A stretch of 64,000 nucleotides of DNA from an uncultured delta proteobacterium (lineage in GTDB: Bacteria > Desulfobacterota > WTBG01 > CAIYCZ01). Where the stretch lies: NCBI GenBank assembly GCA_963803975.1, contig CAWDOY010000003.1:128001-192000 (forward strand), in the 5' to 3' direction. Positions 21,786 to 46,872 of this stretch are shown piece by piece. Each line of letters begins with the position of its first letter. The stretch's first letter is position 1. The position numbers were made by a program, and so were the translations under genes. The notes under the pieces are model-generated. The model did not search any database. It was not told where the DNA came from and was given only the letters and a program-made list of their open reading frames with translations.

Positions 21786-21888
21786 TAAAAGAAGCAGCCA
21801 TGAGGGTGCGGCAATACTTTTAAGAGAAGAGGATTAAAATAACGTGCTCTATTATTGGCTTCTTCAAGGTAAAAAAGGGGAATGATTG

Positions 21889-22484: not shown

Positions 22485-22509
22485 ACATAAAGATAATAAA
22501 CAGGATTCT

Positions 22510-25216: not shown

Positions 25217-25225
25217 GAATACGCC

Positions 25226-27641: not shown

Positions 27642-27704
27642 GTTAAATACGGGCTAACAAGGCACCGTACACACAGGGCAACAGATACTATTCGTGGAGT
27701 ATAC

Positions 27705-28772: not shown

Positions 28773-28873
28773 ACCGTTATGTAAATGCAATCGCCGGGCG
28801 ATTAAGTCTGCGGCAGCCACAGCGTCGCTTCTTGAGAATTAAAGGGGCAGAGCCCAAAAGACTGCTTCGGTGA
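28769..28873 (+). pseudogene. 34-codon stub resembling the N-terminus of a type III restriction (Res) helicase
   Basis: MNRYVNAIAGRLSLRQPQRR..., coupled to rhuM by an ATGA overlap, then homology breaks. Confidence 0.55.
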
Positions 28874-28894
28874 AGAATAATATGGAGATAGAAA

Positions 28895-30137
28895 ATGCCT
28901 TTAAAATCCTACGAGCACTGCTGTTCTTCCTGTATTGCTCTTGCTAATCTCGGAAAGATTGAGGGAGTGATACCCATCCTCCATGGACCGCAGGCCTGCG
29001 CCTTCGGCAATCAGATCGGCTCCATGTTCTGCCGGCCATCCCGGTTGCTGACCATTGGCACCACACTTAAAAAGAGTGAAGTTATTTTTGGCGGTGAAGA
29101 TAAGCTCAAAGAACAGATTGTTAATGTCTATAAACAATACAAGCCCAAAATTATCGTGATTATTAACACCTGTGTTCCGCAGCTCATAGGCGAAGATTTA
29201 AAGGGAGTAATCATCGAGCTGAAGGAAGAACTGCCGGAGCTGAAGGTGACCTATTGTGAGACCGGATTCAATCAGCCAAAATCTACCCCACTGGGCAATG
29301 ACGTATCATGGCGGGCGATTATTGACGTGCTGGAGCCCAGGGATATGATCAAGGGCTCAGTGGGAATACTGGGGAGGGCAGGGCAGGATGCGGACAGCAT
29401 GGGCTGTCTTGACGTCTCTGTTGCGGGAAGCGGGTATTACCACGTTTGCTTTTCCTGCCGGGCACCTTGAAGAAATGGAGAAGATTGTCCAGGCTGAGTA
29501 TCTGTTCCCCATTCATTTAGTCCCCTATCTGACCAGCAAACGGATTAATGAACGGTTTGGCTCAAAGACTGTTTATATTGAACTGCCGGTGGGGATTGCC
29601 GGGACTACCAATTTTCTACGCGGAGTTGCCGACCTGACAGGCAGCATTAAACTTAAAGAAATTGCAGACCGTGAAGAAAAAAGATCATTGCCGCGATTAG
29701 AGAAAATAAGGGAGCAATTCAGACAGAAGCCAACAAAGGTTCTGTTAGTATCCGGGCCTGCCAATGAAACATCAATTGGGAAAATACTGGCTGAATTCGG
29801 AGCAGAAGTGATTATTGTGCCATCCATGCGCAATGCCTTTGCCCGCCAGGAGCAGGACATTTTGCAAAAGCGCTATGGCTCCCGCATTATCTTCCATGAA
29901 AATGACTTTAACAAAGTTTCAGACCTTGTAGGTTTATATAAGCCGGATGTTGTGTTTGGTGATTTCCAGGCACGCGTTGAGGTTATACGAAACCTTATCC
30001 CCTGTCTCATCAACGAGAACTATTTGAATGAATACGGCTATGATTATGCCCTGGACTTTGGTGAAAACTTTTTTGAGAACTTGAAGCAGCCATTTTTTAC
30101 CGAGTGGAAGGATATTATGCGTCAATACGCAGGATAG
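28895..30137 (+). CDS. Nitrogenase component-1 family, BchN/BchY-like subunit, pair 1 (frameshift near 29402)
   Basis: HCCSS, LHGPQAC, EVIFGGEDKL and INTCVPQLIGED give a three-Cys cluster pattern (C10/C35/C93); PVGIAGTTNFL in the second ORF. Confidence 0.85.
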
Positions 30138-30207
30138 AATCTGGAACTCAGGAACTCATAAATTACAGCCTAATCAAATTAATCTGGAACTCAGGAACTG
30201 CATAAAT
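30138..30207 (+). repeat. 26-bp direct repeat x2 in the spacer between the N and B genes of pair 1
   Basis: aatctggaactcaggaactcataaat (30138-30163) and aatctggaactcaggaactgcataaat (30181-30207). Confidence 0.75.
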
Positions 30208-30255
30208 ATGATTTTTAAACCCTGTGCACGATCGTAGTTTTGTATTGGAGATAGC

Positions 30256-31987
30256 ATGTCTGCAACTGACAGAAGAGATTTTATTGCTCCAGAAATAAAG
30301 ATGAAGGAGATTCATAAGCCATCTTCTTTTGAAGGCGCTTTATGGGCCGCGCAGGGGATAACAGATGCCCGGGTGATTTATCATGCACCTCCCGGCTGCT
30401 ATCTTATGCAGCACATGAACTCCATCTGCAATGAATGGCATCCTGAGATGTACAGCACGCTCATATCATACGCTGAAGTTATGCAGGGCACCGGGAAAAA
30501 GCTGGAGGAGGTGCTGGAAAAGGTTGTCGCTGAAAAGCCGCAGGCAATTATTATAATAACCTCACCGGTGATTGAGATTACCGGCGATGACGTTCAGGGT
30601 GCAGTCGCGGCTGCAGGATTCGAGAAGACGGTAATAATAAGACCAACCCTGGGCGGCACACTCGCTGATGGAAAGGAAAAGGCATTTATCGCTCTGACCG
30701 GACTGATGAAGACAGACGAAGAGAAGCGGAAAAAGTCCGTCAATTTAATAGGGCCGACCTATAATACGTTCAACTGGCGGGCGGATGTATTTGAACTTAA
30801 AAGAATGCTCTCTGCCATCGGTATCTGCGTCAACGCTGTTTTAACAGCTGACTGCACGGTTGATGAAATTATACATGCACCCCGGGCTGAACTAAATATA
30901 TGCATGTATCCCTATGATTGCGGGATAGAATTTGCCAAGAAAATGCAGGAGCAGTTCAGCATACCGTATATTGCAAGCCATATTCCCCTTGGCTTCCGAG
31001 AATCAGCTGCATGGCTTGATGAAATTGCCCGGTTCTTTCTGATTGATGCAAAGCAGTATATTGCACAGGAAATAAAAAGTGCCCGGGACTTTGTCACAAC
31101 GCTTTTGGTAACCAACACCTTCTTTGAAGCAACGGCTGCCCTCTCAACTGACAACTGTGATACCTACAGCGTCGGGATAAGCAGTTTTCTGAAAAGAGAA
31201 CTCGGCATGGATGTTTGCATGGCGTCGGTAGCAACTGATGAGGCATTGGAAAAAGTGTCCCAGGTTTGCTCTACGGTACTATTAAATCCAAGCATTGATG
31301 AGAAAAAGTCGGTAATGCTGGAGAAATCCCCGACCATTATTCTCGGGAATTACTATGACCTCAAGCTTGCAACTGACCTGGGATTCAAGAACTTCCTGTT
31401 TGCGGATATCCCGCTTATCGGATACATCTTTTCAGAAACTACTCCATTCATGGGCTTCATGGGTGCTAAGCATCTGGTGCAGGCCATGGGCAATGAGATT
31501 TATACCAAGATATTTATTGAGACCAAGGGGGAAATGGAAGGCGCCATATCAGCAGGGGAGGTGCCGTGGGAACTCGATGCGGAGCGGGCGCTGGGAAGGA
31601 TTGCTGAGATGCTCCCTCATTTTATACGTTCAATCGCGCTGAAGAAAATTCATCAAGTGGCAGATGAGACAGCCGTGCAAAAAAAATCTTCGGTCACGCT
31701 GGGGATCCTGCAGGAGGTCGCCACAAAATATACCCCGACGAGGTTTAAGTCAAAATATGCCACCATCTTTACGGATATAAAAGATACCCCGCTTGTTCCA
31801 GATGGCGCTGAGCAGACCGTGTTTCAGATGGAGTGGGATCAGGGCTGCTAAAGAGATGCTTGAGATGGTGCCCGATGAGTTCGTGGCAAAGGCGGTGAGG
31901 GAAACAGAAGGCTATGCCCGCGAGAACAATTATGGTCAAATAACTACAGCGGTTGTCGAGGAATACCGGAAGAAGCTCGGCTTTTGA
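30256..31987 (+). CDS. Nitrogenase component-1 family, BchB/BchZ-like subunit with two C-terminal PCP_red-like domains, pair 1 (frameshift near 31843)
   Basis: HAPPGCY, EITGDD, VNLIGPT..FNWRADVFELKRML, PLGF and PFMGFMGA; WELDAERAL...PHFIR and MEWD..AKEMLEMVP...ETEGYARENNYGQIT. Confidence 0.85.
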
Positions 31988-32000
31988 TTAATTGAAATAA

Positions 32001-32874
32001 CTATTCTTCGTCAAACCGCTTATCCCTCAGACTGTCTACAAACTGCGGGGTAATGACAGAAATTCCCTTTTCTTTTGCTGCATCAACAACCACTTCTATC
32101 ATTCCATTCAAAAAGATAGCGGGCACTTTCAAAAGCCGTGCGCAGGCATCTTCCTGCCATGTGATGTTCGGGTCAAATCGGGAACAGGCATACTTAACGG
32201 TTGCCATGGTGTTGCCTTTTCCCCGCGGGATCGGGATAGCATAGGGCGGTGAGTGCCTGGCAAACCAGAACCGTACATTATCCCGGTATCCATAATCAAC
32301 GGGCAGGGCAGGGAACCCCTGTCCCTTGAATAAACAATCCCGCCATTTTTTCTGCATGATGATTTTGTCAATGCGCAGCAGAAAGTGGTATTCCATGCGC
32401 TCTTTATTATGCTGCAGCGTAAAACTCTCATCCCAGCTGCACAAAAAGACCTGAACCGCCTCTTTCACAATATCAGGATGCGTCGCGCAAACCTGGCGGT
32501 TGCGCGGCTTGCCATACGGGGTTGCCGGCAGCAGGGTAAAGATGCTTCTTTTCATTTTCTCCTCAGTGGTCTCACCGGGATAACCAAGCATAACGCAGTT
32601 CTTCATATATTTCTTCGTGTCAGGAATATAATTAAGGGAGCAAACTTTCGTGCGTATGATGTTAGCGGCGGTATTGCTGCTGCCGCGTGCGATAAGCATC
32701 ATGGCGTGCTGCTGGTCTCCCGCGATAATATGGGGAAAGCAGAGTGAATACGGTCCCAGGTTGATCATCCCGGACTCTGAATAAGGTGCTCACCAGTATC
32801 ACCGGCATCGGAATAAAACTCGACGTCTGATAAAAGTTATCTACAATTCGTATTTCGGTAAAATCCTGAGACAT
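32001..32874 (-). CDS. Flavin-reductase-like (FMN split-barrel) protein fused to a C-terminal PCP_red-like domain (frameshift near 32775)
   Basis: IPMPVILVST...NLGPYSLC...SNTAANI; C-terminal WQEDACARLLKVPAIFL...AKEKGISVIT. Confidence 0.65.
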
Positions 32875-32937
32875 GCATGAACCTCCATTGGAAAGAGTAA
32901 AATGTTATAATTAACCGCGTTAAACAGATAATATAAG

Positions 32938-32974
32938 AGCCCTTTAATTTCAAGAAAAATGAAATTAAAGGGCT
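32938..32974. promoter_or_regulatory. 15-bp perfect inverted repeat in a divergent promoter region
   Basis: agccctttaatttca-agaaaaa-tgaaattaaagggct. Confidence 0.5.
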
Positions 32975-33011
32975 GATAAATATATCTTGACTCGAAAGTT
33001 GCTTGTGATAA

Positions 33012-33025
33012 TAGTTTGGAAACTA
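33012..33025. promoter_or_regulatory. Candidate MarR operator palindrome
   Basis: TAGTTT-GG-AAACTA, downstream of TTGACT (32987) and upstream of marR. Confidence 0.45.
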
Positions 33026-33101
33026 AATATAAGGTATCAAATTAAACAGCATGTGGCAACATAATTATTACAGCTGATAATCGGCTGACCATTTACCGGA
33101 T

Positions 33102-33602
33102 ATGAAGACAGGAAAGAAAATAATGAAAAATAAAAATGAAAACATTAATTTAAAGGAAATTGAGGAGTTCGGAGATCATCTGCGCAATTGGAGAAATTTT
33201 TTCACTGAGTTTTTTAATAACGTAATAAAAGACAGCGGCAAAATATCAGGCTTTGATTTCAGTATGTCACAGTTTAAGACCATGGGGGCCTTTCGGGAAG
33301 ATACGGTCTATACCATGGGCGAGTTAAGTAAAAATGCTTCTGTTACCATGCCGACCATGACTGAAATGATTGATAATCTGGAGCGGGAAGGAATTGCCGA
33401 GCGGATAAGGGATTCTCAGGATCGGAGGGTAGTAAAGGTACGTTTAACTGCAAAAGGAAAAAAGCTGCGCAAGAAATTCATGGATAAACGAAGGAATGAA
33501 CTTAAAAACATACTCAGCAATCTGAGTAAAGAAGACCGGGGTGAGCTTATGAATGCGCTTGCCAAAGCGTACAGCGTACTGAAGAAAAACAGCACGGTAT
33601 AA
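33102..33602 (+). CDS. MarR family transcriptional regulator
   Basis: TMGELS...TMTEMIDNLEREG..ER.RD..DRRVVKVRLT.KG winged-helix signature. Confidence 0.92.
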   Translation: MKTGKKIMKNKNENINLKEIEEFGDHLRNWRNFFTEFFNNVIKDSGKISGFDFSMSQFKTMGAFREDTVYTMGELSKNASVTMPTMTEMIDNLEREGIAERIRDSQDRRVVKVRLTAKGKKLRKKFMDKRRNELKNILSNLSKEDRGELMNALAKAYSVLKKNSTV

Positions 33603-33637
33603 TACGGCCTGTAGAATAAACAGATAAGGAGAGGATT

Positions 33638-34883
33638 ATGCTTAAAAGCTATGAGCACTGCTGTTCTTCAATGCAGGCTTTGGCAACACTGGGGAAGGTG
33701 GAGGGAATCATTCCTTTGCTGCATGGACCGCAGCCATGCGCCTATCAGATTCAGATAGGAACCATGACCTGCCGTCCATCACGCCTTCTTACCGCTGGTA
33801 CTTTGATTAAGAAATCAGAGGTGGTCTTCGGCGGCGAAGAAAATTTAAAAAATCAAATAATCAATATGTACCGCCAGTATAAGCCAAAAATAATCGTAAT
33901 CATCAATACGTGTCTTCCCCAGCTCATCGGCGAGGATATAAAAGGGGTAATCAGTGAAATAGAACTGGAACTGCCTGATTTAAAAGTGACCTATATTGAC
34001 AGTGGATTCAATTTCCCTAAATGTATGCCTCTGGGAAACGATGTGGCGTGGGTATCGATCGTGAGACTGCTTGAAATAAAAGAGAAGGTAAAGGGATCAA
34101 TTGGTCTGGTTGGAAGGTCAGGGCAGGATGCCGGAGCTTTTACATCATTTGACACGTTTTTAAAGCGGGCAGGGATTACGGTATTCCCGTTTCCCGCTCC
34201 GCATCTGAATGAAATGGAAAAAATTGCATGTGCAGAAATTATATTCCCAGTCCATGTAGTACCGTTCCTGACCTGCAAAGAGATGAGCGAACGCTTCGGG
34301 TCAAGGGTAGAATATATTGAAATTCCTGCAGGTGTGCAGGGCACTACAAATTTCCTGCGGGGGGTTGCTGATATCCTGAAAAACCAGAAGCTGCATGATC
34401 TGGTGGATACAGCAGGAGCAGGAAATGCGGCCCCGCATAGAAGCTATAAAAGAGCGCTTTGCCAAAAACCCGATTAAAGTGATGTTTGCATTCGGGCCGG
34501 CAAGTGAGTTCGGGCTGAGCAAGATTATGGCTGACTTCGGAGCTGAGGTCATAATGATTCCTTCAATGAAAAATAAGTTCGCACAGCAGGAGAAAGAGCT
34601 GCAGAAGAAGCGATACAACGTGACTATTATTGAGGAAGATTTTGATACCCTGGAGGATCTCTATGATCAGTACCGGCCGGATGCAGTGTTTTGTGAAACG
34701 CAGGGCCGGGTAGAACTTACCTCGCGGCTTATTCCAACATTTTGCAACATGACTTATTTAACTGCTTACGGATATGACTTTGCTCTGGATATGGGGGAAA
34801 AGTTCCATGAGAGTATGAAGCTCGATGTATTATCATCCTGGAGAGATGTGGTTCAGAGATACGGAGGCGATCTCAATGCGTAG
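33638..34883 (+). CDS. BchN/BchY-like nitrogenase-fold subunit, pair 2 (frameshift near 34408)
   Basis: Paralog of 28895: YEHCCSS, LHGPQPC and INTCLPQLIGED; AAGGAGAGG ribosome-binding site. Confidence 0.85.
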
Positions 34884-36639
34884 TACTGAAGGCAAGGCAA
34901 TGAAGCAGCTGGAACTGGCAGGCGCCCGCGAGCTGAAGATGAAGGAGATTCATAAGCCTTCAGCGTTTGAGGGGGCTTTGTGGACGGCTCTCGGTATAAA
35001 AGATGCGCGGGTTATTTACCACGCACCTCCCGGCTGCTACATCAGTCAGCATATGGATGCGCTGATGCATGAGTATCCGTTTGAATTATATACGACGTCA
35101 CTTTCATATGCCAATGTTATGCAGGGTGCAGAGAACCAGCTCGAAGCAGTGTTGAGAAAAACCCTGGCACGAAAACCAAAACCGAAACTGGTAATCATTG
35201 TTACTTCTCCCAGTGTTGAAATAACCGGCGATGATGTGGAGGGGGTTGTAGAAAAAGTCGGAGATAAAAACTGTGTCGTAATAAGGCCCCCGATTGGCGG
35301 AAGCCTGCACGAGGGAAGGGAAAAGGCGTTAATAAGTCTGATAGACATAATGGTTCCAGCTGTTGAAAAGATTGCTAAAACAGTTAATTTTATTGGTCCG
35401 ACTTTTGATACCTTTAACTGGAGAGCTGACGCATTTGAGCTAAAAAGAATGCTTTCACGTATCGGCATCAAGGTTAATGCGGTACTGACCGGTGGATCAC
35501 GAGTGAATGAAATTATTAACGCACCACGTGCTTTATTAAACCTCTGCTTGTATCCCTATGACTGCGGTATTGAGACGGCGCAGATCATGGAGAAGAAATT
35601 CGGCATTCCGTATCTTGCCGGCCATGTACCAATTGGTTTTAAAGAATCTGCTGTCTGGCTTGAAGAAATTGCTGGCTTTTTCAAGGTGGACGCACGGGAA
35701 TATCTTAAAGAAGAGACCGAAATGATATTTGAACTAATCCAGTCCTTTATGGTGCTGCCTATTACGTTTGAATGCTCTGCTGCTCTGTCGCTGGATAATA
35801 ACGATACCTATGCAGTGGGCATAAGTCAATTTCTGAAAAAGGAATTGGGAATGGAGCTCTCCATGGTGGCTGTAGGCAGTGATGCTGCAGGGGAAAAAGT
35901 AAAAGAAGTCTGCAGTAATGTTCTGGTAGAACCTACCATTGATGAAAAGAAGGAGCAGTTTATCGAAAAGGGCCCGATGATGATTATGGGCAACTTTTAT
36001 GATTTAAAGATAGCCAAAGAACTTGGTTTTAATAACTTCCTCTTCGCTGATATTCCAACGCTGGGATACATTGCCACAGAGGCAAGCCCCTACATGGGTT
36101 TCCAGGGGGCAAGGAATTTGATTCAGCAGACGGGCAATCAGATTTATATCAATTTTCTCATTGAGACCAAGGGCGGCATGGAAGAAGCCATCTCTTTGGG
36201 AGAAATTCCCTGGGACCTTGATGCACGGGAAGCGTTTGTAAAAGTCGCAGCCGTAATTCCGCATTTTATTAAAGCTACCGCCATGAGAAAGCTGCAGAAA
36301 AAAGCAGAAGAGCTTGCAGTTAAAAATGGCACGGGAATTACTATGGATATAATTAGAACGGTAACAGAACAGTACACGCCAACCAGGTTTAAATCAAAAT
36401 TTTTATCTGCATTGCAGGGCGGTCAAGACGGAGAGCAACAGGGGGAATTTTCTGCAGAACTAACATTTACCATGGAATGGGATGCACCAGCCAGGGAATT
36501 GATGGAAAAGATTCCGCAGGAAGTTAAAACAATGGCAGTTGCAGGTACTGAGGAATTTGCAAGAGAGAAAGGCTACAAAAAAATAACAGTCGGCGTAGTG
36601 AATGAGTTCAAAGAAGAGGCCGGCATGGGGAAAAATTAA
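34876..36639 (+). CDS. BchB/BchZ-like nitrogenase-fold subunit with two PCP_red-like domains, pair 2 (intact)
   Basis: HAPPGCY and FNWRADAFELKRML; WDLDAREAF...PHFIK and MEWDAPARELMEKIP...TEEFAREKGYKKIT; ATG at 34876 follows GGAGG and overlaps the upstream stop. Confidence 0.87.
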   Translation: MRSTEGKAMKQLELAGARELKMKEIHKPSAFEGALWTALGIKDARVIYHAPPGCYISQHMDALMHEYPFELYTTSLSYANVMQGAENQLEAVLRKTLARKPKPKLVIIVTSPSVEITGDDVEGVVEKVGDKNCVVIRPPIGGSLHEGREKALISLIDIMVPAVEKIAKTVNFIGPTFDTFNWRADAFELKRMLSRIGIKVNAVLTGGSRVNEIINAPRALLNLCLYPYDCGIETAQIMEKKFGIPYLAGHVPIGFKESAVWLEEIAGFFKVDAREYLKEETEMIFELIQSFMVLPITFECSAALSLDNNDTYAVGISQFLKKELGMELSMVAVGSDAAGEKVKEVCSNVLVEPTIDEKKEQFIEKGPMMIMGNFYDLKIAKELGFNNFLFADIPTLGYIATEASPYMGFQGARNLIQQTGNQIYINFLIETKGGMEEAISLGEIPWDLDAREAFVKVAAVIPHFIKATAMRKLQKKAEELAVKNGTGITMDIIRTVTEQYTPTRFKSKFLSALQGGQDGEQQGEFSAELTFTMEWDAPARELMEKIPQEVKTMAVAGTEEFAREKGYKKITVGVVNEFKEEAGMGKN

Positions 36640-36744
36640 ACGAAATGTTCTTAACAGAAAGGAGGCAAACATTTACGCAATAATAGCAGAAAATGAAAGC
36701 CAGAGAAAATTTAAAACTATGAAAAAATATGGAGGAGAATTGTT

Positions 36745-37785
36745 ATGAAAAAAACATTGTCAGTACTGTTTGCTTTTATATTTATGGTTAGTTCCGCCTC
36801 TATACTATTTGCTTCAGAAGCAAAAAAGGCAGCAACTGCAGGCGGCAAAGAAAAGATAGGTATTCTTATGGTTGCCCATGGAGAGCCGGAAACGTTTGAT
36901 GCTCCGGTATGGGAAAAAGGCTTAAAACTGATGTTCAAAGAGTTTAAGGACTCCGGCATGGAAGTACCTACTGATGAAGCATTTCCGACAATCCTTGAAG
37001 AGATTAAGCATAAATATGAGGTTATGGGAGGTAAATCACGCCATGCCGAAATGTCACGATTGCAGTGCAAGCTTGTCTGCACAGAAGATGCCCGGCTATG
37101 ATTTCCGTCTTGGCTTTATGGAGTTTATGGGGCCTGAATTTTCCGAAGTGGCAGAAGGGATGATTAAGGATGGAATTAAAAAGATAGTCTTTCTGCACAT
37201 GCTGCAGACGGATTCCACACACACCGGAGAAATAAACAACAAGATAAAAGAGATGAAGCTTGAGGAGCGGGGGATAAAATACGCAATCAGCAAGCCACTC
37301 TTCTACAGACCTGAACCTACGCAGCTCGTTATCGATAAAATTTTGAAAGCTACCGGGAATACGCCGTATGAGCAGGTCGGGGTTGTGCTTGCATCACACG
37401 GAGAACCTGAGGCCTGGGTTAAAGCGAATCTGTTAAATACAAAATGCAAAGAGCAGGAGATTGCATTCTGTAACTGCGTAAAAAAGGGCTTAATTGAGAG
37501 AGGCTTTGTTTGGGAAAATATTACCCAGGGATTTAATGAATTCCAAAAACCGGAAATGCCCGAGGCGGTAGAGCTTATGGCTGAACGGAAAGCAAAGAAA
37601 GTGGTTGTCATCCCCAGCTTTGGCACTACTGAAGGAATGCATATCACCTACGATATACCGACCAAAGCACGGACAGCTTGGTAGATCCTTCAATAGAACT
37701 GGTTTATACCGGAGGATGGAACGATAACCCGCTTCTTATAAAAGCATGGGTTGAGCTTGCAAAAGAGGCTTTGAAAAGGTTGTAG
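36745..37785 (+). CDS. Exported class II chelatase-fold protein (CbiX/CbiK/HemH-like; two frameshifts)
   Basis: Sec signal peptide; GILMVAHGEPE, GFMEF..P, DSTHT, VVLASHGEPE, GFNEF..P and HITYDIP; the third frame ends GGWNDNPLLIKAW..L*. Confidence 0.72.
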
Positions 37786-37814
37786 TGACTAACTATTTTA
37801 AAAGGATACTAAGC

Positions 37815-37985
37815 ATGGCAAAAATAGATACAACTAAGTGTGTAGGATGCGGCGGGTGCATTGACCTCTGTCCAGTGATTGCGATTGCTATGATACAGGA
37901 TGTGGTGACTGTAGATCAGGATATCTGTACAAAATGCGGCATCTGCATAAAAGTCTGTCCCGTGCGTGCACCTTACGAAGATTAG
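37815..37985 (+). CDS. 2[4Fe-4S] ferredoxin
   Basis: CVGCGGCIDLCP and CTKCGICIKVCP. Confidence 0.92.
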   Translation: MAKIDTTKCVGCGGCIDLCPVIAIAMIQDVVTVDQDICTKCGICIKVCPVRAPYED

Positions 37986-38022
37986 CACGAATAATTAGAC
38001 ATTTTATAAAAGAGGATGCTAT

Positions 38023-39354
38023 ATGGCAAAAAAATATGATCTCGTGATAGTGGGCGCGGGCCCTGCAGGATTAATGGCTGGAAGAATCGCTGCTGAGAAC
38101 GGCTTGAAGGTTGTCATTTTAGAGAGGAAAACAGATATCTGCAAGGTGAGAAGATTTGACGGCGGCGTGTTTGCTATCAATGAATACACCTTTGGCCAGC
38201 TCGCTTTGTATAACGAACGGGATAAGAGGGTCACTTTTCCTGTTGGCGGATTTTCCACTCGCTATGACGGCCCGTACACCAATGTTTTTGGCTTCCACCT
38301 TTATTCGCCGGGAGGAAAAAGGCTGCGGTTTGGTGACTGGACGAAACTGAAGGACGATCCAATAAAAAACCGGGTAGCCATAGCGCTCAATAAAGAAATA
38401 CTGTTAAAAAGCATGCTTGATGATTGTCTGGCAACGAGTGTTGAGGTGTTACCCAATGTAAATGTCACTGCCGTGAAAACCGGCGATAACCGGGTTACGG
38501 TAACCGGCAACGGCGAGGAGTATGAAGCACCGTTTCTGATAGCGGCAGATGGTTCTAATTCGAGGATTGCACGGCTTGCCGGTTTCAACAAAGAACGGGA
38601 GTTTTTTGCTACCTCGCGTCACATCGGTTATGAGGTTGAGGGAATGGACTATGATGAATTAAACGGGTTTATCATAGCTCTCACCAAACATGGCTTCTAC
38701 AGCATACTCCCTTATTTTGAAAAAGGGGTAAATCACATCGGGCATCTTACCCATGACCCGTCAGTAGACCTGCATGCAACCATGCAATGGTTCATCAAGG
38801 AATCGCCGGTCTTTTCATCCTGGTTTAAAAAGGCCAAGGTGCGCGAAACAGGACTTACCGGATGTGTTGTGAATGTCTATAAGGCACTGGAAGACCCGTT
38901 TAAAGATAATGTGATACTGGTGTCTGATGCTGCCTGGATACAGGAGGTGAGCATTCCCTCGGCAATGTGTTTTGGCTGGAAGGCGGCAAATGCTGTTACG
39001 CTGGCTTTGCATGATGGAAAACCAAACCGTGAAGGAGTGCAAAGCTATCTTGATTGGTATGGCATTAATTTTTACCAGCCGCACGGCAACAGAAAAATGG
39101 TTGCAATTGAAATGCAGAAGTTTCTTGCAACCGAAGACCTTGATTATCTGGCAGAGCTGCCGGGGAAGGTCTTTCGCCAGACCATGGATTTCCACTATCT
39201 GTTCCATATGCTCGGCGAGATATATGGCGGAGACGGGATGATAAAAATATCAGAAGAGCGTCCGGATATCATGGAAAAGCTTATTGATGCGCGGGGAAGT
39301 ATGGCAGAAGCATCTGAGGAAAGACGCAAGATGGGTTTTCCCGGGAAAAAATAA
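38023..39354 (+). CDS. FAD-dependent oxidoreductase, geranylgeranyl reductase/FixC-like
   Basis: YDLVIVGAGPAG, ILERK, IAADGSNSRIAR and NVILVSDAA; directly follows the ferredoxin. Confidence 0.8.
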   Translation: MAKKYDLVIVGAGPAGLMAGRIAAENGLKVVILERKTDICKVRRFDGGVFAINEYTFGQLALYNERDKRVTFPVGGFSTRYDGPYTNVFGFHLYSPGGKRLRFGDWTKLKDDPIKNRVAIALNKEILLKSMLDDCLATSVEVLPNVNVTAVKTGDNRVTVTGNGEEYEAPFLIAADGSNSRIARLAGFNKEREFFATSRHIGYEVEGMDYDELNGFIIALTKHGFYSILPYFEKGVNHIGHLTHDPSVDLHATMQWFIKESPVFSSWFKKAKVRETGLTGCVVNVYKALEDPFKDNVILVSDAAWIQEVSIPSAMCFGWKAANAVTLALHDGKPNREGVQSYLDWYGINFYQPHGNRKMVAIEMQKFLATEDLDYLAELPGKVFRQTMDFHYLFHMLGEIYGGDGMIKISEERPDIMEKLIDARGSMAEASEERRKMGFPGKK

Positions 39355-39372
39355 TAAACAAAGGAGAAGAAC

Positions 39373-40188
39373 ATGAATAAAATCAGATTACCAATAATAC
39401 CAGTTATAGTTGCAGCACTGATGTGCATGTGGGCATACGGCACCGTAGCCTACGCAGCCGCAGATATAAAAGCTTTGAAAACTAAAATAGACGATACCTG
39501 GGACAGTGGTGATTTTAAAGCATTTGAAAATCTGGAAAAGGAATTAACTTCACAGGTTAGCGATAAGGATGCTGATGGCTGTCTGGTGCTGGCTAAATTT
39601 TACTATTGGTATTCGATGCTCTATGCGGAAAAAGCAAATACTGATAAAAAGCACTGGCTTGATGAGGAAAAGTATGCCGGCGATAAGGCACTGTGGGCTA
39701 AAGGCGGGGAGATGATTGATAAGGCCCTTGACTTAATTAAAAAGGCTGATGAAATGAGTCCGGGAAATCCCCAAATACTTCCTTATTATGCTGTAATCAA
39801 ATATCGCAAGATACGCCATTGCGGCAACATGATATGTGCCATGCTGCATATGAAGAGCCTTTTGGATGTAACCCGGCTTACCATTGAGAAAGGCAAAAAT
39901 GACGCAAGCGCCAATCTGGCTTATGGTATCTACAAGCTCGGCAGATCACAGAAAATGGGAGGCAATCCCCGTGAAGCCATCAGCTATCTGCAGGTGGTTA
40001 TAAAACTTGATCCCAACAGGGCCGAAGGATATTTCTGGTACGGTAAATTTTTCATGAGCCCGAATATAAAATTTCAACCTAAGCTTGCCCGTCCGAATTT
40101 TGAAAAGGCGGTTGCTCTTAATCCAAAAAACTGGCTGTATAAGGAAACGCTTGAACAATTTAACAAAGACTATCCTCCTGAAAAATAA
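39373..40188 (+). CDS. Exported TPR-like helical repeat protein
   Basis: Signal peptide ending AYA-A; EAISYLQVVIKLDPNRAEGYFWYG and FEKAVALNPKN. Confidence 0.7.
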   Translation: MNKIRLPIIPVIVAALMCMWAYGTVAYAAADIKALKTKIDDTWDSGDFKAFENLEKELTSQVSDKDADGCLVLAKFYYWYSMLYAEKANTDKKHWLDEEKYAGDKALWAKGGEMIDKALDLIKKADEMSPGNPQILPYYAVIKYRKIRHCGNMICAMLHMKSLLDVTRLTIEKGKNDASANLAYGIYKLGRSQKMGGNPREAISYLQVVIKLDPNRAEGYFWYGKFFMSPNIKFQPKLARPNFEKAVALNPKNWLYKETLEQFNKDYPPEK

Positions 40189-40208
40189 AACAACAATAAT
40201 TCTGCTAT

Positions 40209-40244
40209 GGTTCGGGACCATCTTTAGTTTAGGCGGTTCCGAAC
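40209..40244. other. Intra-operon hairpin
   Basis: ggttcgggacc...ggttccgaacc. Confidence 0.4.
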
Positions 40245-40277
40245 CTTAATAAATTTAAATACACCAAGAGGTATAGC

Positions 40278-41717
40278 ATGAAAATTCTTAAAATAGTCCT
40301 ACTATGTATAGTTGTTCTTGTTATCGCAGGGTATGGATTATACAAGTATAAAAACCTACCACAAAAACCCGATTATTATGAGTTCTATAAGAATCAGGAT
40401 ACCGTGCCTGAAGGGAAGATAGGGGTTCTGGTGGCCGGCTTGATCATGCCGGAAAAGATCAGCCCGGTGTTTTTCAATAATGTAGCGAAAAAAATCTTTA
40501 AGACGATCGTTCCCTGGCCGGCCCGCAATTTTGTTACAGCAGATAAAGGGGTCGCTCTGCTTGATCCGGTTACGTTCCACTCTCATGAATCTTTTACGCC
40601 GACCAGTCTTATTGACCCTGATGGTAGCGACCGTGACATAGACGGAATGCCCTATATCGAGAAGTATAAGCAGGGACTGGTGAAATGGGTTCCCCCATCA
40701 TCCATGCTCTATCTTGATCACGGCTATTTTCTCTACACCGGACGCAAGGGTGGCCAGCCAACTATTTGCGGGAAAATAATAAATAAATCCCGCATCTGGT
40801 ATCACAATAAAGGCAGCCTCCAGCATGATCTTCCCCACTGGAAGCAGACCTTTAAGGTAATTGATGGTGCACATGAAAAGCTGAAGGAAAAATATGGAAA
40901 TATTGAGTTCCGGGCTGAATGTAATATGTTTTATTATGAGCTGCGCGAAAAGCTCTATGAACTGCTCGATGCAGGATGCACTACGCTCGTGCTCAGCTCG
41001 CCTCTTCCCATGTACTCGCACTTTGAAGAATTTAACTCAGGTTTTCGCCACTGCTTTGAGTTTATTGAGGAGTGGGAAAAAGAACACCCCGGTAAGAAAA
41101 TTAAGGTCATCATGGCGCCGCCCATGGGGCTCTATCAGCCCTATCGAAAGGCGTTTTTAGAAATGCTGAAAGACCGATTGGATACTTTGCCTAAAGATGC
41201 CAGCATTACGGTAGTGGTAAGTGTTCACGGCATGCCCTGGGATCTTTTCACATGGGAAGCATGGATACAGCTTGCTCCACCCTGGCGCGACAAGCTGTTT
41301 GAAGAAATCAAGGAGATGGTGGATTCATATAAATTTAAAAAGACTAATGTGGTAGCAGCACAGGATGAGTTTGCAGACCCGATCTGGGACCCAAAACAAA
41401 AATATCTTTCAACCAACCGCGCCTACTGGAATGCAATCAAGGAAGGATATGATTATGCGATTAATATCCCGATAGAATTTTATGGCGAAAACTCAGATAC
41501 GATGTTTCACCATGCACTGAAAAACTATCACGGGTTTGATCAGTATGATTTGTATAAGCCGATTGATTATCCTGACTGGTCGGTTCCTTTAACCAGAGAA
41601 TTTGTACAAGGAAAAACCCGCATAATATATAATGGAGTGCCGGTAGGCAAATATCAAAAGTACGTAATTGAAGCATTTTACCAATCAATTGACTCCATTT
41701 TATCTAAGAAAAAATAA
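40278..41717 (+). CDS. Membrane-anchored, divergent ferrochelatase (HemH)-fold protein
   Basis: N-terminal transmembrane anchor; KIGVL, LSSPLPMYSHFEEF (compare LPLYPQYS), VVVSVHGMP (compare FSAHGLP) and PIEFYGENSDT (compare P..F..D..ET). Confidence 0.55.
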   Translation: MKILKIVLLCIVVLVIAGYGLYKYKNLPQKPDYYEFYKNQDTVPEGKIGVLVAGLIMPEKISPVFFNNVAKKIFKTIVPWPARNFVTADKGVALLDPVTFHSHESFTPTSLIDPDGSDRDIDGMPYIEKYKQGLVKWVPPSSMLYLDHGYFLYTGRKGGQPTICGKIINKSRIWYHNKGSLQHDLPHWKQTFKVIDGAHEKLKEKYGNIEFRAECNMFYYELREKLYELLDAGCTTLVLSSPLPMYSHFEEFNSGFRHCFEFIEEWEKEHPGKKIKVIMAPPMGLYQPYRKAFLEMLKDRLDTLPKDASITVVVSVHGMPWDLFTWEAWIQLAPPWRDKLFEEIKEMVDSYKFKKTNVVAAQDEFADPIWDPKQKYLSTNRAYWNAIKEGYDYAINIPIEFYGENSDTMFHHALKNYHGFDQYDLYKPIDYPDWSVPLTREFVQGKTRIIYNGVPVGKYQKYVIEAFYQSIDSILSKKK

Positions 41718-41740
41718 TTTGTTATTTGCCTGACTCGCAA

Positions 41741-41782
41741 GCAGGTTCAGACCTTGCCGCATAAGGATGGGTCTGAACCTGC
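41741..41782. other. Intra-operon hairpin
   Basis: gcaggttcagacc...ggtctgaacctgc, 13-bp stem. Confidence 0.45.
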
Positions 41783-41852
41783 TTGGAAAATTCAATCTGC
41801 AACACATAATATATCAACCAGCACTAAATGGGTCTTAACGGTGGAGAAATTA

Positions 41853-42440
41853 ATGGACATTTTAGCAATCTGTGGAAGTCCCAGAAAACATAAAACTACT
41901 CACAGCGTGCTGGAGGCGGTACTGTCTGGAGCAGGCAGGCCATATGAAATACTGTGGCCTGCTTTTATGAAGATTGGCCACTGCATAAGCTGTCAAAAGT
42001 GTAAGTACAAAACACCTGGCGAATGCTGGCAGGACGATGACATGAAAGTGGCCATCGAAAAAATGTTTGCAGCCAGAGCGCTTATAATAGCATCTCCCAC
42101 TTATTTTGGTAATGTACCAGGCCCCTTAAAGAACTTTATCGATAGAACCATCCCTACCTGCTATACCGGCAAGGGAGACACTTGGATGGGAGCAGAGAAC
42201 CACGGGAAACGGCCTTTTAAGGGGCAACTCGGCATGATTGTTGTCGTGTCGGGTGGTGCTGACCAGGAGAAAACAGCAGCTAATCTGCGCCTGGTATTTG
42301 ATTATTATGAATATGCTGTGATTGGAGAATTTGCCGAGAGCATGGGTGGGATTATTGTCAGCAAACAAGAATACCCGGATATCTATACCAGGCTTTTTGC
42401 TCTTGGCAAAATACTTGATGAAGCCCTGAAAACAAGGTAA
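41853..42440 (+). CDS. Iron-sulfur flavoprotein (Isf) / flavodoxin-fold FMN reductase
   Basis: GSPRK, CISCQKC-X7-C, DDM, ASPTYFGNV and LKNFIDR. Confidence 0.85.
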   Translation: MDILAICGSPRKHKTTHSVLEAVLSGAGRPYEILWPAFMKIGHCISCQKCKYKTPGECWQDDDMKVAIEKMFAARALIIASPTYFGNVPGPLKNFIDRTIPTCYTGKGDTWMGAENHGKRPFKGQLGMIVVVSGGADQEKTAANLRLVFDYYEYAVIGEFAESMGGIIVSKQEYPDIYTRLFALGKILDEALKTR

Positions 42441-42449
42441 TATACGAAC

Positions 42450-43562
42450 ATGACAATAGAAGGGATAAATTCCAAAACAGGGATAATCATGATTGGCCAT
42501 GGAGAGCCGGAAGTCTTTGAAGAAGAACTGTGGGCTGAAGCGCTGCATGAAATGTTTGAGGAGTTAAAGAGAACCGGTATCGAAGCTCCTTCTGATGAAG
42601 CCATTCCCCTGATGCTGCCCATAATAGAGGGAAAATATGCAGCCATAGGGGGCAGATCAAGACATAATGAGATCATTGGCAAGCAAAGCGAACTAATAGC
42701 CCGGACGTTGCATGAACACGTAGTCAGTTATGGATTCAATGAATTCACCAGCCCGCATTTTACGGCCGTTACCGAGCAGATGATACGTGAAGGAATAACC
42801 AGGATGGTGTTTGTTCCCATGCTGATGACAGATTCCTCGCATACGCAGGAGATAAAAAATAAAATTGAATGCATGAATCTGCAAGAACAGGGTGTTACCT
42901 GGGTTATGAGTAAGCCACTCTTTTATAGACCGGAACCAATACAACTGGTAATAAATAAAATTATGCGAGCTGCGGGAAACATTCCGCCAGATAAAACAGG
43001 CATACTACTCGTTTCCCATGGAGAACCGGATCAGTGGGCTTTATCGTCCACTATACATACCAAATGCAATGAGCAGGAGAAAGCGTTTGCTTTGAGTGTA
43101 AAAAAGGGGCTTATTGAGAGAGGCTTCCCAGGGGAGAATATCGTGCGGGCATTTAATGAATTCACCCATCCTGAAATAGCAGAAGCGGCTGAAGGACTGG
43201 CGCATAAAAAAGTCAAAAAGATTATTGCCGCAGCCACCTTTGGCAATACTGACTGTATCCATGTAAACTATGACATACCGGCAAAACTAATAGAATCTAT
43301 TGATAACGCAGCCGTAGAGATTGTTTGTCTTGATGGGTGGAATGAAGATCCTCTGCTGATTACCGCATATTGCGAACTGATCAAGGAATCGCTGCTACTG
43401 CTATCTGAAAACCAGATTGAAGGTTGCTACCTGTCGAAGGGGGGTAGCAGCGTCTGCAGTCAGAATGCAAACAATCATTACAGAGCAATAATAAAGCGTC
43501 TGGCTGCTGCTCGCATAGGGGCACATGTCTCTTTATCCCTGACCATAGAGCCGTACGACTAA
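42450..43562 (+). CDS. Cytoplasmic class II chelatase-fold protein, paralog of 36745
   Basis: GIIMIGHGEPE, GFNEFTSP, DSSHT, LLVSHGEPD, HVNYDIP and GWNEDPLL; no signal peptide; the last ~50 aa may be read-through. Confidence 0.75.
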   Translation: MTIEGINSKTGIIMIGHGEPEVFEEELWAEALHEMFEELKRTGIEAPSDEAIPLMLPIIEGKYAAIGGRSRHNEIIGKQSELIARTLHEHVVSYGFNEFTSPHFTAVTEQMIREGITRMVFVPMLMTDSSHTQEIKNKIECMNLQEQGVTWVMSKPLFYRPEPIQLVINKIMRAAGNIPPDKTGILLVSHGEPDQWALSSTIHTKCNEQEKAFALSVKKGLIERGFPGENIVRAFNEFTHPEIAEAAEGLAHKKVKKIIAAATFGNTDCIHVNYDIPAKLIESIDNAAVEIVCLDGWNEDPLLITAYCELIKESLLLLSENQIEGCYLSKGGSSVCSQNANNHYRAIIKRLAAARIGAHVSLSLTIEPYD

Positions 43563-44871
43563 AAAATTACCTGAGATACGCATATTTCATCCGGCAGAGG
43601 AACGCTTCTTCCCATGGTATCCTCCCCGTAATTAACTTCAGCAAGCAGCTTGAGATCGTGGAGTGTTTTTTTATCTCCCCGGAACTCAACTGCCGTGATA
43701 CCCTCCTTTTTTATGATTCCAGCAGCCCACATCATGTCAATGACACTCGCGGCATCGAACTCTTTATTGCTTACTACCATGGTTGTTTTAGTGCCGTAGT
43801 TGTTTACTGCTTTAGCCACAAGGGTTGATGGTCTAAGATGAAAGCCAAGTCCCTGGGGTACATTAAGCGTGATGGAATCAACAACGGTATATTTTGTGAC
43901 AATAGATTCAGCCAGCGTCAGGCCGTCTTTTATAAACAGGGTGTAGTAATAAAGAGCAAAATTAATAATGGTATTGAGCACTTCTTTTCTGCTGACAATT
44001 TTTTCAATGCGCTTCATGGTGCTTTCAGCCCGCACTTTGGTTTCATGCCGTTCAACAAAATGACAGAGGCCCTGGGCGATTTCCAGAAAATGGAGGGTAA
44101 TGGAAATATAGCCGCGTAAACTTTTCAGCGATTCGTCCTTCAATTCAACCGGCGTTTTATGAATATAGGTATCATACATTGACTGCAGACTGTGCATTTT
44201 AGCTTCGATATGACGCAGGATGTCTTCATTGATTTTTGCCGGTATGAGTTTTTCTATATTTTTATCAGTGATTTTTTTCTCGAACAATAAGATGTTCCGA
44301 AGCTTTTATAACGGCAAGAAATTCAGCGGCAACGCGGGTAACATTTTCATTAATTTCATGCACCGTCTCCTCGTCAATCGTGTGGGGCAGGATCTTTAAC
44401 GATCAGATTTTCTTCCACATCTTCTTCATTAAGCACGCAGGATGGGATGCTCAAGTGGTTAAATAGTTCAGCCTCTTTTTTAAGACTGGAAAAGAGGGAT
44501 ATGATGGACTCATTCAGGAACTGCACTATCAACTGGGCATCCTGAATAAAGGAAGTCTCATGTTTATTGTTCAGGCGGTACAGAGTGATGCGGCGCAGTA
44601 TATGGCTGATTATATAGGCAACGTTTGCAAAGTTGCGGATAGAAGCGACAAGTTCACCAAAATAGACCCAGGTTTTGTTGTTGCGCGCCCCATGGTCATC
44701 GAGCAGGTCTTCTAAATCCGTTGCTTCCTTAATCAGTATCCCATACAGCTTTTTGTTGAGCTTGTGGGTATTATCAAGCAAACAGGATGACAGAATAAGC
44801 ATTTTACGGGCTGCTTTTTGTGCAATGCCCAGAAACTCTTCTTCCTTTATTATTTCAAGCAGTGATTCCAT
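43559..44871 (-). CDS. Large helical protein with a C-terminal HPr phosphocarrier domain (frameshifted)
   Basis: GFHLRPSTLV (HPr His15 motif) and DAASVIDMM; ORFs 44374..44871 and 43559..44287 joined by an open linker. Confidence 0.65.
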
Positions 44872-44911
44872 ATTTCCCCTGTTTGTGTCTCAAGACCAAT
44901 GGTAGATGGTT

Positions 44912-46517: not shown

Positions 46518-46551
46518 AACTGCCGGAATGCAGTTCGACGGTGGGGTGCTT

Positions 46552-46872
46552 CTATTTTTCAACAAAAACCCGGTGTCCACTAAAGGGCAGTAGATCGCCT
46601 GCCTTAAGATTATATTTTCTGATAATTTCATTATCGAGCGATACTTTTTCCCCGCTGATGGTGATATAATATTTACGCATCGGTATTACCATCGCTTTAC
46701 GAGCGGGCTTTTTTGATGGCTTTTTTATTGCTCTGACCTGTTTTTTTACCGGTTTCTGCTTTGTCTTGGTTTTGGCTGCTGCGGCAGTGCTGCTTTTTTG
46801 CCTGGTGCGAACCTTGCGCTGTACCTTGGTGCGACGGGAGATCAGAGACTTACTTTTTTTTGCTTTCATCAA
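46552..46872 (-). CDS. Small Lys/Arg-rich basic hypothetical protein
   Basis: About 60-aa K/R/A-rich N-terminus plus a small globular C-terminus. Confidence 0.55.
   Translation of the reverse strand: MMKAKKSKSLISRRTKVQRKVRTRQKSSTAAAAKTKTKQKPVKKQVRAIKKPSKKPARKAMVIPMRKYYITISGEKVSLDNEIIRKYNLKAGDLLPFSGHRVFVEK

Follow-up and report, generated by a model that had tools for sequence, protein, structure and literature searches.

The stretch of DNA analyzed here, referred to as the window, comprises 64,000 nucleotides (64 kb) of contig CAWDOY010000003.1 from an uncultured delta proteobacterium. Its positions 28895-43562, a locus of 14.7 kb, hold two pairs of nitrogenase-like subunits, N1/B1 and N2/B2, where N stands for the alpha-type and B for the beta-type member. 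The pairs are accompanied by a flavin-reductase-like protein and a MarR-family regulator, and pair 2 is followed by a series of genes, all co-directional, that runs from the ferrochelatase-fold protein chelatase 1 through chelatase 3 (Table 1). The pairs represent a real, conserved, and lineage-restricted nitrogenase-like reductase, which has one simple cluster site, a C-terminal tail of the BchB type, and tandem, unlike Fe proteins. Every gene that an original prediction, made from the letters alone, had listed for this region is in place according to open reading frame (ORF) listing, Pfam, NCBIfam, and direct reading; that prediction had missed the one-base indels in several genes and the absence of a NifH-like gene from the window. 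Its observation that the window holds no nif, bch/chl, cob/cbi, or cfb genes was borne out over the other 59 ORFs.

All four N and B subunits of the window pass PF00148 (E 1e-7 to 6e-67), and together with PF00142 Fe proteins that carry a P-loop and two cluster cysteines, encoded elsewhere in the genome, they place the family in the nitrogenase-like superfamily. None of the N, B, or H (NifH-like) proteins reaches an NCBIfam equivalog cut-off among the models for dark-operative protochlorophyllide oxidoreductase (DPOR), chlorophyllide a oxidoreductase (COR), Nif, and Cfb proteins. The B subunits score 136-181 bits on the BchB model (TIGR01278, cut-off 490.35) and 114-146 on that of BchZ (TIGR02014, cut-off 529). 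The N subunits score 82 bits on NifE (cut-off 505) and 19 on BchY (TIGR02015, cut-off 425), and the N protein of a third pair, encoded on contig C50 of the same genome, reaches 65.6 bits on BchN (TIGR01279, cut-off 419.95). On the CfbD model (TIGR03282, cut-off 268.4), N and B obtain 26-56 bits. Sequence searches against the PDB return BchB/ChlB as the best matches of B (E 2e-22), and NifEN and NifK as those of N. The AF2 model obtained for B2 (pLDDT 71) gives similar E-values with all beta-type subunits; its target-normalized TM scores are highest for BchB/ChlB (0.82-0.83), followed by AnfK, VnfK, MarK, and NifN (0.75-0.78). The B proteins additionally end in a PCP_red domain (PF08369), with E 1e-11 in B2 and 7e-15 in the C50 protein, and in a shifted frame in the case of B1.

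The placement of the subunits was addressed with trees that used one reference per clade, taken from annotated plasmids (BchN/B/Y/Z of Roseobacter litoralis, NifD/K/E/N of a Rhizobium, and VnfD/K/E/N of a Nostoc), and that contained no CfbD, Mar, Isr, Group VI, or actinobacterial DPOR-like sequences. In a quick tree of 61 rows, where one truncated B was labeled N by its length, the family N and family B proteins form separate clades with a Shimodaira-Hasegawa-like approximate likelihood ratio test (SH-aLRT) value of 100 each. Both clades are recovered with 100/100 in a tree of 29 rows (LG+C20+F+G4), in which family N is sister to BchN plus BchY (87/90), family B is sister to BchB plus BchZ (88/86), and the two groupings join at 82/77. 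With moderate support and on long branches, the family therefore appears to branch beside DPOR and COR in both subunits and outside each of them. The original prediction had proposed to ask whether the subunits nest within a characterized clade: by models and trees alike, they lie outside DPOR, COR, NifDK, NifEN, and Vnf.

The aligned ligand positions are highly conserved. Cysteines occupy the columns of BchN C29, C54, and C115 in 23/23 family N sequences (NifD C72, C98, and C164 in the references used), and a cysteine is found in 25/25 family B sequences where BchB has D36, BchZ C35, and NifN C44. The columns of NifK C70 and C153, which belong to the P-cluster, hold Ser and Pro in the family, and the column of NifD C283, a ligand of the FeMo-cofactor, holds Ile, Val, or Leu. 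From this conserved 3+1 arrangement and the missing P-cluster and FeMo-cofactor ligands, the N/B pair is predicted to hold one simple, all-Cys inter-subunit [4Fe-4S] cluster, with three cysteines from N and one from B, and nitrogenase chemistry is ruled out. An all-Cys 3+1 site is the pattern of COR and NifEN, and the fourth cluster ligand of DPOR is an Asp from its B subunit.

Table 1. Features of the reductase locus in the window (window coordinates) and the related operon on contig C50 of the same genome.
Feature	Position	Strand	Evidence or remark
N1, alpha-type (N-like) subunit of pair 1	28895..30137	+	PF00148, profile 1-155 and 164-392; two frames: 28895-29470, 29388-30137
B1, beta-type (BchB/BchZ-like) subunit of pair 1	30256..31966	+	PF00148 E 4.5e-65; frame ends 31851
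Flavin-reductase-like protein with C-terminal PCP_red-like domain	32001..32768	-	weak Pfam PCP_red, E 0.007
MarR-family regulator, upstream of pair 2	33102..33602	+	PF01047 E 2e-8
N2, alpha-type subunit of pair 2	33638..34883	+	PF00148, profile 1-246 and 254-391; split
B2, beta-type subunit of pair 2, PCP_red tail intact	34825..36639	+	PF00148 E 6e-67; PCP_red E 1e-11
Chelatase 1, ferrochelatase/CbiX fold, Sec signal peptide	36745..37785	+	Pfam CbiX and Ferrochelatase; broken
Ferredoxin, 56 aa, 2x[4Fe-4S], two CxxCxxCxxxCP motifs	37815..37985	+	read from sequence
FAD-dependent oxidoreductase, geranylgeranyl-reductase/FixC superfamily	38023..39354	+	GG-red-SF 75.3 bits
Exported TPR protein	39373..40188	+	TPR Pfam matches; signal peptide read from sequence
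Chelatase 2, N-terminal membrane anchor, ferrochelatase fold	40278..41717	+	AF2 and Foldseek
Isf-like FMN reductase, CxxCxxCx7C motif	41853..42440	+	FMN_red E 5e-24
Chelatase 3, cytoplasmic, ferrochelatase/CbiX fold	42450..43562	+	Pfam CbiX and Ferrochelatase; tail altered
MarR-H1-H2-N-B operon	G000 C50:21405-32287 (L024:7405-18287)		

The only two NifH-like genes of the genome, H1 and H2, are found on C50 beside the third N/B pair. H2 obtains 310 bits on the NifH model (cut-off 394), 302 on CfbC (cut-off 402), and 208 on BchL (cut-off 345), and PF00142 passes its cut-off. The two genes occur in tandem and in the same order in 18/19 related loci with any H gene. The encoded paralogs are about 55% identical, and the P-loop, switch II, and the two cluster cysteines are retained in each. 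In switch I, 19/19 aligned H1 proteins carry a Ser (GCSPKNDST) where NifH, BchL, BchX, and H2 carry an Asp; this position is presumably that of NifH Asp39, involved in coupling ATP hydrolysis. H1 and H2 may thus form a heterodimeric, asymmetric Fe protein; if they do, the superfamily would have in them an unusual case of two unlike Fe proteins conserved as a pair. Downstream of the C50 B gene are encoded a 355-aa protein without Pfam or NCBIfam family (Atlas score 0.77 at best), two alpha/beta hydrolases (Abhydrolase_5), and an enzyme of the old yellow enzyme (OYE)/2,4-dienoyl-CoA-reductase type. The latter was considered as a bilirubin reductase. Its top NCBIfam match is indeed 'bilirubin reductase, long form' (357 bits vs a cut-off of 750), but the score on BaiCD is nearly as high (351), so that the match does not discriminate between the two.

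Related loci were collected with a pattern scan, using one genome per species, and compared through tblastn maps, ORF clustering, and Pfam. The scan yielded 28 loci, 27 of them from metagenome-assembled genomes (MAGs) labeled Thermodesulfobacteriota or 'delta proteobacterium' and one from a Spirochaetota single-cell genome. They comprise three subtypes, Bc, B2, and B1, which match three subclades in both trees. The Bc type (18 loci and C50) has the order MarR-H1-H2-N-B, with tandem H genes in 15/18 and DUF1302 downstream in five loci, four of which also hold DUF1329. The B2 type is represented by four loci and the window. Its order N-B-ferredoxin-FAD reductase-chelatase-TPR is found in L027 and L047; L048 has two chelatases, the sequence of L026 ends just past the ferredoxin, and H1-H2 lie directly upstream in L047 and L048. 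The B1 type (eight loci and the window) shows no H gene in the available flanking DNA. Two of its loci, L029 and L030, contain two genes of the bilin reductase family Fe_bilin_red, ferredoxins, a heavy-metal P1B ATPase, and a B12 radical SAM enzyme. A gene for the last is also present in L035 and beside a divergent Bc-type pair in L050 (4/28 loci in all), and its best NCBIfam model is BchE (207 bits vs a cut-off of 481). A DUF169-ferredoxin gene is found in L029, L043, and L049, as well as upstream of the Bc-type pair in L036. In the majority of related loci, a MarR gene adjoins N/B or H-H-N-B.

The cluster of L029 and L030 is also present in this genome, at C8:11000-20000 (L062:6977-15934). 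It comprises a MarR gene, a heavy-metal P1B ATPase with an unknown gene on either side, two Fe_bilin_red-like genes, ferredoxins, and a gene for a BchE-like B12 radical SAM enzyme. Whereas it adjoins the N-B1 pair in L029 and L030, here it is detached from N1-B1.

The B family is present in 22/42 genomes of the class to which the window belongs (12/21 of those of high quality). At E <= 1e-60, an even sample of the phylum returned it in 7/401 genomes, all seven within the class, and in 0/387 outside it. Within the set of genomes searched, the enzyme does not extend beyond a single class-level lineage of Thermodesulfobacteriota that are uncultured and live in sediments.

The three chelatase-fold proteins belong to two families. 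Chelatases 1 and 3 are 51% identical; five His, including those of the HGEP motif that opens each half of the protein, are invariant in 6/6 members of their family, and the family profile matches Bacillus subtilis ferrochelatase/CpfC in the PDB (E 1.5e-10). Scores on the HemH model TIGR00109 are 26-42.5 bits and do not reach the cut-off of 124.6. Among seven members, chelatase 1 is exported, that of L036 has N-terminal membrane segments, and five look cytoplasmic. L026 has no chelatase 1 gene at the spot between B2 and the ferredoxin (L026:7904-7954 vs 36639-37815 of the window), but contigs of the sequencing runs X1 and X2 cover this gene. Chelatase 2 represents a separate, unnamed family of about 480 aa with at least 352 homologs at 58-81% identity. 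Its AF2 model (pLDDT 89) retrieves B. subtilis and human ferrochelatase in Foldseek (E 1e-10, TM 0.62-0.71, probability 1.00) and, more weakly, periplasmic CbiK and the heme-binding FetB (E 1e-6 to 2e-5). Paralogs of chelatase 2 on C4 and C31 adjoin pairs of bilin-reductase-like genes.

The chelatase 1/3 family occurs in 8/42 class genomes, all eight of which also have the B family, in line with the co-occurrence that the original prediction had proposed to look for; these genomes are kin and the counts are not independent. The chelatase match lies no more than 3 kb from the B match in five of the eight (G000, G006, G019, G029, and G033); in the other three, the matches are 150 kb apart on one contig or, in two fragmented assemblies, on different contigs. 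The family follows the B2-type pair in 3/3 related loci with enough downstream DNA. The architecture with three chelatases is composed of genes that are all present, but the layout is particular to this genome, its relatives having one cytoplasmic copy (two chelatases in L048).

Several accessory genes are also conserved. The nearest ESM Atlas clusters of the flavin-reductase/PCP_red protein carry Flavin_Reduct and PCP_red (score 0.92-0.98), and its gene is kept beside B1 in L026, where it encodes 307 aa, and in L027. A paralog on C42, 66% identical, adjoins bilin-reductase-like and PNPOx-like genes. Orthologs of the ferredoxin (80-93%) directly follow B2 in L026, L027, and L047, those of the FAD oxidoreductase (84-91%) follow B2 and the ferredoxin in L027 and L047, and the TPR protein is conserved in the same two loci. 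The original label of 'GGR-like' (for geranylgeranyl reductase) had to be dropped for this oxidoreductase, since its GG-red-SF score lies below the cut-off of 158.8 bits and it is thus not a member of the GGR family. A role as BchP was likewise rejected, as BLASTP against R. litoralis BchP aligns only 35 residues, those of the FAD motif. The BchP analogy and the proposed succession of a DPOR-like and then a COR-like step rest on resemblance only and do not appear to be supported.

The surroundings of the locus include a mobile or foreign island directly upstream of N1 (15700-28800), with ORF6N fragments, a DDE transposase (19104-20594), degraded type I restriction-modification genes at 22-28 kb (GC 0.57-0.58 vs 0.42-0.49 in the surroundings), and a split RhuM gene (27970-28772). 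On the minus strand at 43559-46631 there are two conserved genes, each cut in two in this assembly; their counterparts in L027, whose synteny extends downstream, encode an unknown 436-aa protein and a 572-aa CarboxypepD_reg repeat protein. The end of the window (59260-64000) contains a peptide-maturation-like set formed by a PqqD-like protein, a radical SAM/SPASM enzyme with an N-terminal PqqD domain, an HPr-kinase-related protein, and a Propeptide_C25-domain protein. An Rfam search of the window gave a single match, a tRNA at 54934-55005.

Beyond the locus, the genome was checked for genes of phototrophy. With 98% completeness, it has no match to Photo_RC (PF00124), PsaA/B (PF00223), or CobN/BchH (PF02514), so that the organism, already described as an apparent non-phototroph in the original prediction, lacks reaction-centre and Mg-chelatase H genes in the whole-genome check that had been suggested there. 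As regards canonical sources of bilins, there is no match to heme oxygenase and no HutW/ChuW member in the genome, the best match to the latter model being 212 bits vs a cut-off of 400. The genome does contain 22 matches to Fe_bilin_red (PF05996), 17 of them above the Pfam cut-off, and 11 to PCP_red. Within the class, 32/42 genomes have 6-22 PF05996 matches each, and such genes are found in 21/22 B-positive and 11/20 B-negative genomes. Strong matches (E <= 1e-30, a threshold too strict for copy counts) are present in 6/401 genomes of the phylum, all in the class. Genes with the bilin-reductase fold are therefore expanded lineage-wide in this class of anaerobes. In nine regions sampled, they recur with FAD reductases of the 38023-39354 family, FMN reductases, PNPOx-like and DUF169 proteins, and short-chain dehydrogenases/reductases; the same sets also hold chelatase 2 paralogs, TetR or MarR regulators, and DUF1302/DUF1329/MMPL/BNR envelope genes.

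Several genes of the locus are interrupted in this assembly. N1 is read in two frames because of a one-base indel near 29400, an extra base relative to L026. The PCP_red tail of B1 is in another frame, at about 31844-31966 (profile match C3:159844-159966), after a break at 31843. N2 is split by a single extra base at 34409 and is intact in L026; chelatase 1 has breaks at 37079 and 37676, with its last 50 residues in the frame 37633-37785, and a base missing at 43435 changes the end of chelatase 3. The region 27900-43700 was compared with Logan contigs from three runs (X1, X2, X19), two of DNA and one of an RNA library, whose coverage leaves out the region of the N1 break (28954-29480). At every covered site, the indels are missing from the run contigs. 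These leave out one letter at 31843/31846, 32785, 33073, 33122, 34409/34411, 37079, and 43583, and add one behind 37676 (C) and behind 43435; the letters at 31843/31846 and 34409/34411 are left out in X1, X2, and X19 contigs alike. L026, the contig of a related MAG that is 94% identical, also lacks the extra bases of the window at the N1, B1-tail, and N2 sites. RNA-library contigs of relatives span parts of N1, B1, N2, B2, and the FAD reductase, and count as weak support because DNA carry-over is not excluded.

These breaks could mean that the pairs of the window are decaying pseudogenes beside a mobile-element island, and that only the operon on C50 is functional. The 14.7 kb contain at least seven frame breaks, whereas the housekeeping genes of the window (dnaE, pheST, thrS, guaAB, and others; about 16 kb) contain none, and this contrast weighs against an intact locus and keeps local decay in consideration. 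An insertion sequence element and degraded restriction-modification genes directly upstream fit the same picture, as do the 5' part of N1, where identity to L026 drops to 84% from the 94-97% of the rest, and a deletion of about 150 bp that the N1 of L026 carries itself. Decay does not explain, however, that each indel site covered by other data (the three runs and L026) is intact there, nor that private indels also hit intergenic sites and essential genes, with hemB in two pieces (C1:209626-210568) and nrdD in three (C8:5400-7700). Even in the supposedly intact C50 operon, H1 is truncated compared with its 98% relative L053, and the OYE gene is frame-broken too. A crude split-ORF index, which counts same-strand neighboring open frames that overlap by at least 45 nt in different frames, amounts to 789/3260 pairs (24%) in this genome. 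It is 22/96 (23%) in five related loci whose source MAGs bear 'MFD' in their isolate names and are taken to be nanopore assemblies, and 26/183 (14%) in the other 23 MAG loci; two of the five 'MFD' loci show many frame breaks. None of the private indel sites, including those at 29410, 31843, 33073, 34409, 37079, and 37676 of the window, falls in a homopolymer, and 6/10 are within a few bases of CWGC/GCWG, a raw count made without comparison against chance. The private indels may thus reflect a systematic, context-dependent sequencing error. Since they are missing from other runs and from the 94% relative, and since essential genes are split as well, the indels are probably technical. The frame breaks are, with high confidence, assembly errors, from which it follows that the locus is probably functional in the organism; its decay is considered very unlikely. 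An interpretation as programmed frameshifts or pseudogenes had to be discarded as the principal one, given that the positions differ between paralogs, other data lack the breaks, and essential genes are hit.

Taken together, genes of the ferrochelatase fold and the bilin-reductase fold, as well as BchE-like and PCP_red-bearing ones, recur next to the reductase in organisms without photosynthesis genes. The function that we favor, with slightly better than even confidence, is that of an ATP-driven reductase for tetrapyrrole-type pigments, probably acting in catabolism or salvage. Low-potential electrons, driven by ATP, would serve to reduce C=C bonds in a substrate of the porphyrin, chlorin, or bilin type. 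The H1-H2 tandem on C50 would serve all three N/B pairs in trans, possibly as a heterodimer, and the three pairs would act at different positions of the substrate. The B2-type operon, which encodes a ferredoxin, an FAD reductase, Isf, and ferrochelatase-fold proteins with predicted locations in periplasm, membrane, and cytoplasm, would capture, import, and perhaps de-metalate an external metallo-tetrapyrrole, and MarR would render the operon substrate-inducible. The purpose of the system would be the anaerobic catabolism or salvage of pigment debris. A further-reaching proposal, which is tentative and rather doubtful, makes the enzyme the catalytic core of an anaerobic tetrapyrrole degradation in which the class would be specialized. 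The macrocycle would be reduced stepwise, with the three pairs on different rings, and this would be followed by ring opening and bilin-reductase-like steps. Such a reduction of the macrocycle of chlorophyll- or heme-derived pigments would parallel that of benzene rings by benzoyl-CoA reductase.

A tetrapyrrole substrate had already been suggested in the original prediction. This idea gains context from the bilin-reductase-like genes (three loci), the BchE-like B12 radical SAM enzyme, and the ferredoxins near B1-type pairs, and loses some from a layout that is genome-specific and from the Bc type, which has a chelatase in 1/18 loci. Other points also weigh against the function proposed here. 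The substrate is inferred from homology and neighbors only. In the Bc type, the commonest of the three, the nearby chelatase is that of L036 and a bilin-reductase-like gene is nearby in one locus (L031); the genes usually located nearby encode DUF1302/DUF1329 outer-membrane proteins, hydrolases, and an OYE-type reductase, a set compatible with any hydrophobic substrate. Eleven class genomes have many bilin-reductase-like genes and no N/B family, so that the two are not obligately linked. H1 and H2 score closer to NifH and CfbC than to BchL and BchX, and the sister position to DPOR and COR is only moderately supported, with one reference per clade. Finally, the organism makes its own tetrapyrroles, as hemB is present.

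The presence of hemB means that precursors are available, and because of this gene a biosynthetic role retains some weight: the reductases and chelatases would then build an unknown modified tetrapyrrole cofactor, as CfbA-E do for F430 and BchLNB/BchXYZ for bacteriochlorophyll. The cfb pathway also pairs a class II chelatase with a nitrogenase-like reductase, and the restriction of the family to one lineage is a property shared with specialized cofactors. As far as the accessible text of a recent review goes, all characterized relatives acting on tetrapyrroles (DPOR, COR, and CfbCD) are biosynthetic (PMC13474568). Several features of the loci, however, weigh against biosynthesis: control by MarR-type repressors, one exported and one membrane-anchored chelatase, nearby genes for esterase-fold hydrolases, a heavy-metal P-type ATPase, and outer-membrane proteins of the uptake type, and the 6-22 bilin-reductase-like paralogs per genome, which look like substrate diversification. 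The family is also found in only 22/42 class genomes, and biosynthesis is judged quite unlikely.

The substrate could also lie outside the tetrapyrroles, for example among aromatics, quinones, or isoprenoids, with the chelatase-fold and bilin-reductase-fold neighbors recruited for other chemistry. MarR regulators are often sensors of aromatics, and the Bc neighbors include a 3-hydroxyacyl-CoA dehydrogenase, alpha/beta hydrolases, an OYE/2,4-dienoyl-CoA-reductase-like enzyme, and DUF1302/DUF1329/MMPL proteins. In a low-confidence alignment, the position of the proton-donor Asp of BchB is not conserved, and characterized Group IV relatives cleave C-S bonds of small molecules, according to the part of the same review that was accessible (PMC13474568). 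These observations have to be set against a B subunit that keeps the BchB-specific PCP_red domain and groups with BchB/BchZ, and against the recurrence near the pairs of independent families of tetrapyrrole type, namely the ferrochelatase fold, Fe_bilin_red, BchE-like radical SAM enzymes, and PCP_red fusions. Such a substrate therefore seems rather unlikely.

The anaerobic breakdown of chlorophyll, heme, and bilin debris in sediments is largely unknown, and the enzymes known from plants and aerobes need O2. The locus hints at an undescribed, oxygen-free handling of chlorophyll- or heme-type pigments in a non-photosynthetic sediment bacterium, and a lineage with an orphan ATP-driven reductase, heme-chelatase-fold proteins, and many bilin-reductase-like genes offers concrete, clonable candidates for anoxic pigment breakdown. 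A clade beside DPOR and COR also bears on the origin of chlorophyll biosynthesis. Because both subunits branch there, the family may preserve the kind of enzyme from which the chlorophyll-making reductases were recruited. Uncharacterized nitrogenase-like clades are named as the main open problem of the nitrogenase field in the accessible text of the 2026 Chem Rev review, which there lists nitrogenase-like Groups IV A-F, V, and VI only (PMC13474568). A full-text literature search, outside of which were the supplementary trees of PMC11194577 and bioRxiv supplements, returned no description of the family or of this type of locus. Pre-PcyA bilin reductases in heterotrophs have been described by Rockwell et al. 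(PMC10151467), in an article whose accessible portion does not mention nitrogenase.

Among the known systems, the periplasmic CbiK from Desulfovibrio vulgaris (PDB 2xvx, 2xvz) and FetB from Porphyromonas gingivalis (9b86) resemble the chelatases of this locus in placing a class II chelatase fold outside the cytoplasm. Both are precedents for the capture of tetrapyrroles rather than their synthesis. Chelatase 2 matches them more weakly than it does true ferrochelatases, and the families found here are separate and unnamed. CfbD is of the single-subunit type. The CfbC/CfbD and CfbA proteins of the F430 pathway provide a nitrogenase-like tetrapyrrole reductase in a non-phototroph, encoded near a class II chelatase, and the H proteins score almost alike on the CfbC and NifH models (302 and 310 bits). 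Unlike that system, N and B obtain only 26-56 bits on CfbD, and the chelatases are HemH-like, two-domain proteins instead of the small CfbA.

Group VI, with NflH/D/K from Elusimicrobia, Gracilibacteria, and Myxococcales, is defined in the accessible text of Meheust et al. (10.1101/765248) by radical-SAM-rich neighborhoods. It likewise consists of uncharacterized nitrogenase paralogs without P-cluster and FeMo-cofactor ligands, for which tetrapyrrole reduction is predicted from context. The difference is that a B12 radical SAM gene lies beside only 4/28 loci of the present family, a distinction drawn by neighborhood and not by sequence. Uncharacterized DPOR-related proteins have also been reported from non-phototrophic Actinobacteria, Limnochordia, and Dehalococcoidia and, in the accessible text, form an outgroup to DPOR and COR (PMC11194577). 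These are BchNB-related proteins in non-phototrophs, as in the present case, though from different phyla.

The closest comparison is with DPOR (BchL/BchN/BchB) and COR (BchX/BchY/BchZ) of Group V, which share with this enzyme the tandem paralogous subunits, the 3+1 [4Fe-4S] site, and the NifH-like ATPase. The C-terminal PCP_red domain of B and its best sequence and fold matches in the PDB, BchB/ChlB, are further points of agreement. The family nevertheless lies outside both clades and below every equivalog cut-off, and its fourth ligand is a Cys, as in BchZ, instead of the Asp of BchB. It also differs from both in its two distinct Fe-protein paralogs, which score nearer to NifH and CfbC, in a host without reaction centre or Mg-chelatase, and in an organization into MarR-controlled operons with up to three N/B pairs per H1-H2 pair.

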